This document shows positions 37,712 through 38,678 of a DNA stretch of 56,052 nucleotides, in pieces. The DNA is from a virus, in IMG/VR virus record IMGVR_UViG_3300032157_000011, positions 1 through 56,052 of that record. One strand, 5' to 3'. Every line of letters starts with the position of its first letter. Position 1 is the first letter of the stretch. The position numbers and the translations under genes were made by a program. The notes under the pieces were generated by a model that saw nothing but the letters and a program-made list of their open reading frames with translations, had not been told where the DNA came from and searched no databases.

Positions 37712-37722
37712 ACGTCAAATGA
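37712..37722 (+). promoter_or_regulatory. Start box ACGTCAAATGA (exact)
   Basis: Begins 1 nt after upstream TGA; ATG 37719 opens the mini-ORF MKFP-stop (37719..37733), 15 nt before major capsid ATG 37749. Confidence 0.65.
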
Positions 37723-37748
37723 AGTTTCCGTAGAACAGCCAAAAAGCA

Positions 37749-38678
37749 ATGCCGACCGCACTTCAACGCGAATTGACGTTCCTGATCGCCGAACGTCGCA
37801 AGGCCTACCGGCCTCTTCAGTGGCGTCAGATCGTCCAGCTGAAGCGAGGAATCCCCGAGTGGGCGGAAAACCTCGAAGTCATCAAGCTGAGCGAGCAAGC
37901 GAACGAGCCCGTTCCGCATCAGATGGGGAACCAGAAGGCACCCACGCCGAGCTTCGATCGCTCCGCGGGCTACCTCAAGTTGGTGGAGTTCGCGCTCGCC
38001 TACCAGATCTTCGACAGCGAGTTGATTCGCTCGGAGAAGATGGGGATCAACGTCAGCGCTACCAAGGTGCTGGCGAACAGCCGCGCGACGGAAGAGTTCC
38101 TGGACAAGGTCTCTCTCATTGGCCACGCGGCGTACAACCTCGTGGGCGTGTTCCGCTGCGCGGACGTCACCCCCATGACCATGACCAGCGCGCTGTCCGA
38201 TCTCTCGGATGACGAAGTGGTCAAGGTGTTCGGCAACTTCTGCTTCAAGGTCAAGAACGACACGAAGCAGAACAACGCCTGCACTCGGCTGGTCTTGCCG
38301 GACAACACGTTCCGCTACCTGTCGACGCGCTACATGGACGGCTCGGACGTCAGCACGCTCGACAAGATCCGCAAGGCGTTGCCCGGCGTCGAGATCGTCG
38401 ACTCCTACAAGGCGCGCACCGCGGGCGGCACGTTGACGAACGGCGTGGGCGACAAGCACCGCTGCGTCGCGCTGGACAACTCGACGGACGTCGTCGAAAT
38501 GCCCATGGTCCACGAAATGACCGACGGCGAGCCGCTGAAGATCCACAACGGCTACGAGGTGCTTCAGACGATCAAGTTCGGCGCGCCGATCGTCTACAAC
38601 CCGTTGGCGATCTGTTACCTCGACCTGGCGGACGATCCGCTCGGCTCGACCGAGGACATGGTCTCCGTCGCGCTCTGA
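37749..38678 (+). CDS. Major capsid protein
   Basis: 309 aa, follows protease/scaffold and decoration-like genes; resembles DUF2184-type coat proteins (from memory); followed by a strong GC hairpin. Confidence 0.75.
   Translation: MPTALQRELTFLIAERRKAYRPLQWRQIVQLKRGIPEWAENLEVIKLSEQANEPVPHQMGNQKAPTPSFDRSAGYLKLVEFALAYQIFDSELIRSEKMGINVSATKVLANSRATEEFLDKVSLIGHAAYNLVGVFRCADVTPMTMTSALSDLSDDEVVKVFGNFCFKVKNDTKQNNACTRLVLPDNTFRYLSTRYMDGSDVSTLDKIRKALPGVEIVDSYKARTAGGTLTNGVGDKHRCVALDNSTDVVEMPMVHEMTDGEPLKIHNGYEVLQTIKFGAPIVYNPLAICYLDLADDPLGSTEDMVSVAL

Follow-up and report, generated by a model that had tools for sequence, protein, structure and literature searches.

The closest described counterparts of the element reported here are the start-associated sequences (SAS) of the Cluster K mycobacteriophages (Pope et al. 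2011, PMC3203893). We analyzed a 56,052-nt viral sequence, positions 1 to 56,052 of IMG/VR record IMGVR_UViG_3300032157_000011 (hereafter the window), in which a 19-nt box centered on an ATG recurs at gene starts and, just ahead of the major capsid, tail tube, and lipoprotein-like genes, opens separate open reading frames (ORFs) of 3 to 4 codons (mini-ORFs). Both the SAS and the box are short asymmetric repeats present at ~11 to 19 copies per genome, co-oriented with genes and located at translation starts, and both show a strong association with ATG, in some copies take in the upstream stop, and are phage-specific. The SAS (GGGATAGGAGCCC) lies 3 to 7 bp upstream of the start, contains the Shine-Dalgarno core AGGAG, and serves only non-structural genes, whereas the box includes the start codon itself, lacks GGAG, reaches into codons 2 and 3, and serves the scaffold, capsid, and tube genes as well as replication genes. 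Approximately nine copies of the box, unlike the SAS, open a separate mini-ORF.

That a short ORF can "deliver" ribosomes to a downstream gene is an accepted concept, employed in bicistronic-design cassettes, and a natural example is provided by mycobacterial interspersed repetitive units (MIRUs), intergenic operon repeats whose internal ORF is coupled to the next gene and whose insertion keeps expression (both reviewed in PMC12548453). The bicistronic cassettes and the box arrangement have in common a short, self-started ORF that ends near the start of the real gene, unfolding it and passing ribosomes on, but the cassettes use −4/−1 overlaps and a Shine-Dalgarno sequence in the leader ORF, whereas here the distances are +10 to +15 nt, no Shine-Dalgarno sequence is clear, and the ORFs have 3 to 4 codons. 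MIRUs, roughly 40 to 100 bp in length, are mobile repeats of bacterial chromosomes with a −4 overlap, whereas the box is 19 nt long, phage-borne, and often the gene start itself. The leaderless short ORFs at the 5′ ends of mycobacterial operons (PMC4633059; bioRxiv 10.1101/834739) are also Shine-Dalgarno-free, precede longer genes, and belong to a system capable of leaderless translation. They lie at the 5′ end of the transcript and act as amino-acid-sensing attenuators, whereas most boxes are inside polycistronic units with no promoter upstream. The bar minigenes of phage lambda resemble the box mini-ORFs in being ORFs of a few codons in a phage genome; these translated ORFs of two to three codons have a Shine-Dalgarno sequence, are not known to precede structural genes, and are known for the toxicity of peptidyl-tRNA drop-off, not for coupling. 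The box is best described as a variant of the start-associated sequences combined with coupling of the upstream-ORF type.

A repeated box centered on ATG codons

Alignment on the ATG defines the box as AAACGTCAA-ATG-A[A/C]G[A/T]WYT, spanning −9 to +10 of its ATG, and no conservation is found in the aligned boxes outside these limits, including in the −35 region. The string TCAAATGA occurs 22 times in the window against 0.83 expected, and for the box 16-mer, allowing up to 3 mismatches, there are 16 copies where 0.29 would be expected. A scan with a position weight matrix (PWM) recovers 19 sites of at least 24 bits, all 19 of which contain the ATG and are in the sense orientation to the adjacent gene, while shuffled sequences gave 0 to 6 matches above 8 bits (the top shuffle scores were not recorded). 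Together, the motif counts and the PWM scan rule out a chance origin. In addition to the 19 strong copies, the window holds ~3 weak ones, and each instance of AAA[CT][GA]TCAA in it continues into ATGA.

The box is A/U-rich and largely unstructured, with the ATG fixed at its center. A conserved box hairpin was rejected, as local folds of the box alone are weak (0 to −8 kcal/mol) and inconsistent between copies and positions −5 and +5 do not covary; in these folding predictions, the lack of a consistent hairpin fits an open start region. Searches of the window against Rfam matched no family, and a tRNA search found none. Interpretation of the box as a promoter of the extracytoplasmic function or sigma-70 type was also rejected, given the absence of a spaced −35/−10 pair. 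A leaderless-type −10 element (TAnnnT 5 to 8 nt before the box ATG with a −35 element 16 to 18 nt upstream) is likewise absent, and positions −12 to −7 read nGAAAA.

There is partial dyad symmetry in the box (AAAC.TCA-AA-TGA.GTTT), and its reverse-complement shadows score 12 to 19 bits. The strong sites, however, are all in one orientation, the right arm is variable, and the center is asymmetric. An antisense box-like sequence, with ACG replacing ATG, is found in the tail-terminator gene (40711-40731, minus strand), and the closest relative, L119, has the same antisense site at ~5170-5190 (minus strand) with a perfect core and the ATG present; the site is probably a look-alike due to coding constraint, made possible by the quasi-palindromic nature of the box. 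Within the DNA methyltransferase gene, a near-perfect 20-bp palindrome, GAAACGTCGATTGACGTTCC, is composed of two box-like half sites (18996-19016).

The box ATG as a start codon

Comparison of protein sequences indicates that the box ATG is the real start codon of two genes, an HslV-like peptidase gene and a scaffold gene nested in the head maturation protease gene. The former (17637-18158) adjoins the large terminase gene, and its product matches phrog_1040 over residues 1-169 (E 4e-15). By BLASTP, its residues 1-35 align with residues 1-35 of Escherichia coli HslV, which begins MTTIVSVR, and position 1 of the TIGR03692 HslV profile falls on Thr2, although this profile match is weak (E 0.085). 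In the N-terminal nucleophile (Ntn) hydrolase family the N-terminal Thr is the nucleophile, and translation of the HslV-like gene must therefore begin at exactly the box ATG. Among 5.8 billion proteins, the HslV-like protein retrieved only itself and one match at 31% identity; it has no match in the PDB by sequence, and a single-sequence AlphaFold model was unusable (predicted local distance difference test score of 31).

In the head maturation protease gene (phrog_530, E 8e-76; DUF2213 domain at residues 29-187), the in-frame box places its ATG at residue 219, from which a nested 186-aa scaffold-like product, MKILIGGKELE..., is predicted. A protease with a nested scaffold is a familiar arrangement. 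The nested-start Met and the following K[F/I] are kept in 9/9 relatives examined. Those at 45-58% capsid identity mostly carry GAAAGG, AAGGA, or GGAG 4 to 12 nt before the nested Met (the motif is weak or absent in L133 and L136), whereas in the window and L119 this Met is preceded by the box. Since the box stands where most orthologs have a Shine-Dalgarno-like motif, it substitutes for the Shine-Dalgarno sequence at this internal start. In the relative L121, the protease gene and a following gene of 234 aa are separate. The gene calls list only the long protease ORF, and the box is of use for annotation in that it fixes several gene starts, including this nested one that standard callers miss.

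Approximately eight further box ATGs are the 5′-most start of ORFs of 73 to 362 aa. As the box ATG is a real start at the HslV-like and scaffold genes, the identical boxes of the capsid and tube leaders should also start translation, and the mini-ORFs MKFP-stop, MKF-stop, and MTF-stop are, judging from the sequence, probably translated. The box ATG is translated under every reading considered below except one in which the box is solely an operator.

The relation of box ATGs to upstream stops varies. Nine overlap an upstream stop or sit 0 to 13 nt from it, with distances of 7 nt at 1939, 34606(-), and 37719 and 13 nt at 42199, and with ATGA overlaps at 9767, 27109, and 32078(-). Others are inside upstream genes (12900, 26890, 32369(-), and 36663) or 18 to 21 nt from a stop (11327 and 15663). 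At least five are 29 nt or more away from any upstream stop, and these boxes must therefore recruit ribosomes de novo.

Mini-ORFs ahead of the capsid and tail tube genes

The capsid box overlaps the TGA with which the cement gene ends, beginning 1 nt into it, and the mini-ORF that it opens is placed 7 nt past this stop and 15 nt ahead of the capsid ATG. The tube mini-ORF lies 13 nt past the sheath stop (42183-85) and 13 nt ahead of the tube ATG, and that of the lipoprotein-like gene (ATG ACG TTC TAA; ATG 26325, TAA 26334-36) ends 10 nt before ATG 26347. An earlier note on this DNA had reported these three mini-ORFs with gaps of 15, 13, and 10 nt, and its coordinates are exact throughout.

Both virion-gene leaders are predicted to be folded. 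In the capsid leader (−32.6 kcal/mol, z −3.05 versus shuffles), one arm of a long-range stem consists of the 3′ end of the cement gene together with the 5′ half of the box and the other arm of capsid codons 9-15, and an 8-bp core of this stem recurs in L119. The tube leader (−27.3 kcal/mol, z −2.5 versus shuffles) forms a hairpin the architecture of which also recurs in L119, with pairing retained there as U.G despite an A-to-G change. In these models, a ribosome terminating on the upstream gene or positioned on the mini-ORF would open the structure, which fits coupling.

The distances involved are pertinent to how such coupling might operate. The direct gaps from the cement stop to the capsid ATG and from the sheath stop to the tube ATG are 37 and 38 nt, respectively. 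In E. coli and Haloferax, termination-reinitiation proceeds at 20-60% of the overlap level at +13/14 nt and has all but disappeared by 20-38 nt (PMC10666635), and the direct gaps would therefore be uncoupled. The box splits them into hops of 7 + 15 nt and 13 + 13 nt, which are feasible for reinitiation. The stop-to-start gaps of the capsid (+15), tube (+13), and lipoprotein (+10) mini-ORFs are outside the −4/−1/~0 range of coupling, and overlapping or near-zero junctions are found only at 34547(-), 12941, and 8777. Sheath and tube are 1:1 partners, and cement and capsid are presumably near 1:1 as well, as we assume from virions of the E217 type. Coupling is enriched among gene pairs encoding stoichiometric partners (PMC10666635).

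We tentatively favor, with slightly less than even confidence, a reading of these sequences in which the box is a portable start cassette that operates without a Shine-Dalgarno sequence and the capsid and tube mini-ORFs serve as a relay or unfolding device. According to this proposal, the box ATG would start ribosomes in two ways, de novo where it is far from stops and by re-starting where it overlaps a stop or lies 0 to 13 nt from one. Where an MK or MT N-terminus is tolerated, as for the HslV-like protein, the nested scaffold, and ~8 others, the box ATG would be the gene's own start, whereas at the capsid and tube genes it would open an ORF of 3 to 4 codons because their N-termini are conserved and cannot be changed; the capsid N-terminus, MPTALQRELT, is kept in both L119 and L121. 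A ribosome finishing the cement or sheath gene, or loading at the box, would translate the mini-ORF and thereby hold the leader hairpin open, terminate 13 to 15 nt short of the real ATG, and re-initiate there. Capsid would in this way be coupled to cement, and tube to sheath, in roughly stoichiometric amounts; if true, the relay ties these pairs together across gaps that are otherwise too long. Any contribution of mini-ORF translation, and of the reinitiation or unfolding that follows it, to capsid and tube output would probably be an enhancement rather than an absolute requirement.

The box and its leaders in relatives

One of the relatives, L123, is this phage itself, recovered from another sample (100% identity). 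The next closest, L119, has 85% capsid amino-acid identity and 75.5% nucleotide identity to the window and preserves the mini-ORFs, that of the tube leader as ATG AAG TTC TGA (a synonymous change) with the 13-nt gap unchanged and that of the capsid leader as TTG AAG TTT TCG TAG with the 15-nt gap unchanged, the 13-15 nt following the capsid mini-ORF stop having themselves diverged. Across the three boxes shared with L119, 7/57 positions differ (12%), versus 24.5% overall.

Relatives at ~50% identity have a related motif, ...GCAAATCAATTGACGG..., only before the capsid and tube genes, with a GGAG or GAAAGG after it that is spaced from the main ATG as a Shine-Dalgarno sequence would be. The window's capsid mini-ORF stop, cgTAGaa, aligns with cgGAGaa of these relatives, and by this alignment the Shine-Dalgarno motif of the capsid leader is lost exactly where the mini-ORF stop arose. 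More generally, Shine-Dalgarno-like 4-mers are found upstream of 23% of genes in the window (background 9%), compared to 40-69% in relatives. Reading the relatives' motif as TCAA-TTG-ACG makes its TTG the start of ORFs of 2 to 9 codons, with ends at −10, −4, 0, or +1 nt relative to the ATG of the capsid gene and at +13 or −4 nt relative to that of the tube gene; the ORF of L137 overshoots, and in the tube leaders of L134 and L137 the frame is still open at the ATG. These TTG mini-ORFs are only suggestive, because the TTG is forced by the palindrome TCAATTGA and because closure is frequent by chance (see below).

Shine-Dalgarno-free initiation in polycistronic mRNAs is poorly understood, and the window provides ~20 copies of one 19-nt start site, some of which are part of a gene while others stand apart from theirs, with mini-ORFs of differing length and spacing in between. 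Relatives add natural controls in which a Shine-Dalgarno sequence replaces the box, TTG replaces ATG, or the box is deleted. This natural allelic series suits the study of Shine-Dalgarno-free initiation and reinitiation and of virion stoichiometry set by a relay.

A sequence similar to TCAATTGA, CAAATCAATTTGC, occurs in the divergent region upstream of the protease operon, and in L134 the 14-mer of the relatives' motif recurs unchanged within the protease gene, 31 nt upstream of the nested start, and encodes DGNQLT. Both box types may also resemble a universal segment of 16S rRNA, 5′-AAACTYAAAKGAATTGACGG-3′ (E. coli ~907-926, same sense); the strings concerned are AAACGTCAAATGAAGTT in the window box and CAAATCAATTGACGG in the relatives' motif, and this likeness may be coincidence.

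Weighing the relay against other explanations

Several observations weigh against the relay. As a null for the closing of mini-ORFs near gene starts, we used non-box NTG codons 10 to 45 nt upstream of called starts and counted closure as a stop within −4 to +15 nt of the start; 49% of these codons close within this range, and the 8/10 box mini-ORFs that do so in the window are not significant against this null (across ~13 distinct leader configurations in relatives, p ~0.04). Two successive hops, each 20-60% efficient, seem an inefficient way of making the most abundant proteins of the virion. The core that is otherwise invariant carries two substitutions in the L119 capsid box (ATG to TTG), and in L121 (74% capsid identity) the box core is lost (...ACGCCGAAGTTCTGA...) and there is no mini-ORF start. 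The tube leader carries a weak purine-rich GAAAGA where relatives carry GAAAGG or GAGG, and the earlier note's statement that the downstream starts lack a Shine-Dalgarno sequence stands for the capsid and lipoprotein genes. Many genes in the window begin without a box, an overlap, or a Shine-Dalgarno sequence, and the host can therefore initiate without them. Three boxes are preceded by a sigma-70-like −10 hexamer whose end lies 10 nt from the ATG, and transcripts started by it would be missing the box's 5′ half. Finally, the core of the relatives' motif, TCAATTGA, is a perfect palindrome, a pattern commoner for a DNA-binding site.

The proposal of the earlier note that the two most abundant virion proteins depend on a ribosome that translates a tiny ORF and then reinitiates is therefore retained only in a weakened form. 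In its favor are the use of the box ATG as a start elsewhere, the mini-ORFs of L119, and the heavy stop/start coupling of the window, where 37/88 predicted genes start at most 3 nt from, or overlapping, the previous stop. The TTG of L119 and the missing box ATG of L121 argue against strict dependence, and neither the closure null nor the efficiency of reinitiation favors it. The comparison of orthologous leaders that the note had suggested as a check is divided in the same way, as L119 keeps both mini-ORFs while L121 has lost the capsid box ATG with its capsid N-terminus conserved. A more specific version, in which the host ribosome or a phage factor reads the box as a sequence-specific site of ribosome entry or re-entry that displaced Shine-Dalgarno motifs and spread as a start and relay cassette, is possible but doubtful.

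Much of what weakens the relay would be expected if the box were a real start cassette and the mini-ORFs its by-products, with the capsid, tube, and lipoprotein genes each initiating independently at its own AUG, within a leader that is open, A-rich, or weakly purine-rich. The frame opened by the box would then be closed quickly, either by selection or by the stop density of A/T-rich leaders, and the mini-ORF would at most modulate expression. The frequency of chance closure agrees with this explanation, as do the capsid genes that are intact despite the lack of a box ATG in L121 and the degenerate box in L119, the many genes without box, Shine-Dalgarno sequence, or overlap, the GAAAGA of the tube leader along with the GAGG 7 nt before the tube ATG in L119, and the correctly spaced Shine-Dalgarno sequence that the TTG-form relatives carry for the main ATG. 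We nevertheless consider it somewhat unlikely: a strong start 10 to 15 nt upstream would occlude the main AUG unless ribosomes were handed on, the loss of the Shine-Dalgarno motif coincides with the gain of the stop, L119 conserves the stop and the spacer lengths, and the leader structures resemble coupling devices.

The box could instead act mainly on DNA, as a single-block middle or late promoter read by the host RNA polymerase with a phage factor or as the operator of a dimeric regulator. Transcription from the box ATG would then yield leaderless mini-ORFs, and transcription from a point downstream would render the mini-ORFs irrelevant. T4 late promoters are similarly compact and without a −35 element, and the location ahead of the capsid and tube genes is a common place for a late promoter. 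The quasi-dyad of the box, the palindrome TCAATTGA of the relatives, and the similar CAAATCAATTTG in the divergent control region upstream of the protease operon would also suit a DNA site, and leaderless mRNAs are evidently translated by the host. The starts of the HslV-like and scaffold genes, however, are incompatible with transcription that begins downstream of the ATG. There is no −10-like hexamer at −12 to −7 of the box ATG, most boxes have no −35/−10 elements, and neither a phage RNA polymerase nor a sigma factor was detected among the annotated genes of the window. All 19 strong boxes are in the sense orientation with an ATG, neither of which a symmetric operator would need; moreover, the box covers protein codons 2 and 3 and lies within upstream coding regions and at ATGA stop overlaps, as a translational signal would. 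This explanation is, in our judgment, quite unlikely. Very improbable is a role as an RNA operator, comparable to the T4 RegA sites that overlap AUGs, or as an endoribonuclease site that generates leaderless 5′-AUG mRNAs, with a phage-encoded regulator or nuclease and incidental mini-ORFs. An AUG-centered motif (−9 to +10) repeated over early and late genes in a host that handles leaderless mRNAs is in keeping with such a site, and the ACG variants can form a small CGUC-AAAU-GACG hairpin. This hairpin is weak or absent in the AAG variants and has no covariation, no candidate RNA-binding protein or nuclease was identified among the annotated genes, and a single operator for the capsid and tube genes together with replication genes lacks an obvious logic.

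Other boxes and longer ORFs

The earlier note had also listed longer ORFs of 14 to 27 codons ending on or next to the starts at 2026, 8777, 27141, and 34547(-). Their coordinates are correct (Table 1), and the one before 2026 opens 7 nt past the stop of the exonuclease gene, but caveats apply to the other three. The ORF at 34606(-) holds a complete promoter, TTTACA-N17-TAAGCT-N7-ATG, and the gene at 34547 would therefore be leaderless; the starts at 8777 and 27141 are ambiguous, with alternatives at GTG 8735 and at 27169, respectively. A mini-ORF at 12900 (12900-12944) shares the frame of gene 12564-12944 and is no more than its last 14 codons, and it and 34606(-) are both trivially explained. 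The ORF of box ATG 26890 (MKK-stop) ends 28 nt ahead of the next start. The box at 9767, missed in an earlier reading, was found by the PWM scan.

In the leftward operon with three boxes within 730 nt, box ATGs 32802 and 32078 (minus strand) start ORFs of 181 and 362 aa, the former with tandem ASSPQRK(A/T)(D/N)P repeats. Box ATG 32369(-), inside the 181-aa ORF in another frame, opens a 459-codon ORF in frame with 32078, and GC content at third codon positions in 30990-32811 does not discriminate which of the overlapping ORFs are real. Between 26316 and 27153 (plus strand), four boxes occur in ~800 nt ahead of small ORFs of 108, 73, 60, and 120/156 aa, and this cluster of small genes may be a cassette of the lysis or spanin type. 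AAATAAATCGGC is common to the leaders at 26260-26300 and 26667-26690.

Table 1. Features of the window and of relatives discussed in the text
Feature	Coordinates (strand)	Comment
Box before major capsid gene (GAACGTCAA ATG AAGTTTC)	37710..37728 (+)	29.4 bits
Capsid mini-ORF MKFP-TAG (ATG AAG TTT CCG TAG)	37719..37733 (+)	TAG 37731-33
Major capsid gene (PF09950)	37749..38678 (+)
Predicted long-range RNA stem, 37701-37718 with 37773-37791	37701..37791 (+)	Both AUGs enclosed
Box before tail tube gene (AAACGTCAA ATG AAGTTTT)	42190..42208 (+)	33.7 bits; kept in L119
Tube mini-ORF MKF-TGA (ATG AAG TTT TGA)	42199..42210 (+)	TGA 42208-10
Tail tube gene (PF11681)	42224..42670 (+)
Predicted hairpin, last 8 sheath nt UUCGGUCU with AGACCGAA just 5′ of tube AUG	42176..42221 (+)	Box inside
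Half-box (TTCAAATCAA ATG ACGTTC) and mini-ORF MTF-TAA	26316..26336 (+)	14.1 bits only
Lipoprotein-like gene	26347-26673 (+)	108-aa ORF
Box and HslV-family peptidase start	17628..18158 (+)	ATG 17637; MTTIAAAR...
Box in frame within head maturation protease gene 36009-37223	36654..37223 (+)	ATG 36663
Box and 27-codon ORF	1930..2022 (+)	ORF 1939-2022; stop 3 nt before helicase ATG 2026
Box and 22-codon ORF	8700..8777 (+)	ORF 8709-8777; stop overlaps ATG 8777
Variant box (AAACGTAAA ATG AAGAAAA)	9758..9776 (+)	26.3 bits; starts gene 9767-10021, overlaps upstream stop
Box, ATGA overlapping stop of gene 26930-27112	27100..27153 (+)	14-codon ORF 27109-27153 overlaps ATG 27141
Three boxes, leftward operon	30990..32811 (-)	ATGs 32802, 32369, 32078
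Box and 20-codon ORF	34544..34615 (-)	ORF 34606-34544; ATGA overlap with ATG 34547
Box, ATG 51349 starting 84-aa membrane-like protein	51340..51603 (+)	TTGATC-N17-TAGGGT upstream
GCAAATCAATTGACGG motif sites	L128 9977-9995, 14486-14500; L129 9975-9990, 14517-14532
GCAAATCAATTGACGG motif in capsid/tube leaders		L124, L125, L133, L135, L136, L137
Early sigma-70-like promoters	29569-29605(+); 35987-35956(-); 35329-35293(-); ~35010-34964(-); 34582-34545(-)
Family A DNA polymerase	6372-8585
Large terminase	16038-17588
Portal	20792-23053
Integrase	28463-29572
Head protease	36009-37223
Cement protein	37226-37711
Sheath	40860-42185

Genome context and promoters

The window is a 56-kb genome of a temperate myophage of the E217/PB1 structural type. 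No cultured relative was found, as INPHARED contained neither a megablast match nor a capsid tblastn match, and the best identity of the sheath protein there was 34%. Scans of IMG/VR with the capsid, the sheath, and the box returned nothing useful, the 14-mer box pattern giving single chance matches only. GTDB genome scans for the host or relatives yielded only a Myxococcales metagenome-assembled genome at 30% identity, and a metagenome scan returned four short contigs.

Scans of the window for terminators and promoter consensus sequences were not above shuffles, with the exception of two early promoters. The five early promoters, TTGACx-GCGGTCCCCC(a/g)c(g/t)(c/t)GC-TAnnnT, end 6 to 7 nt before an ATG, and leaderless early mRNAs are therefore predicted. 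With the stop/start coupling and the box described above, the phage seems to use three routes to initiation that do not involve a Shine-Dalgarno sequence. The conserved spacer of the early promoters may be an operator, and L128 and L129 repeat this early-promoter layout, their spacer containing GCTAGGATCCTAGC.

A third repeat, AGCAGAA(C/G)TTTTG followed 20-21 nt on by TAGGGT or TAAGGT, occurs at 17591-17640, 24123-24167, and 51303-51352 on the plus strand. Its −10-like hexamer ends 10 nt before the box ATGs 17637 and 51349 and 5 nt before a plain ATG at 24165, and the repeat may represent a second class of promoter, whose transcripts at 17637 and 51349 would begin inside the box.

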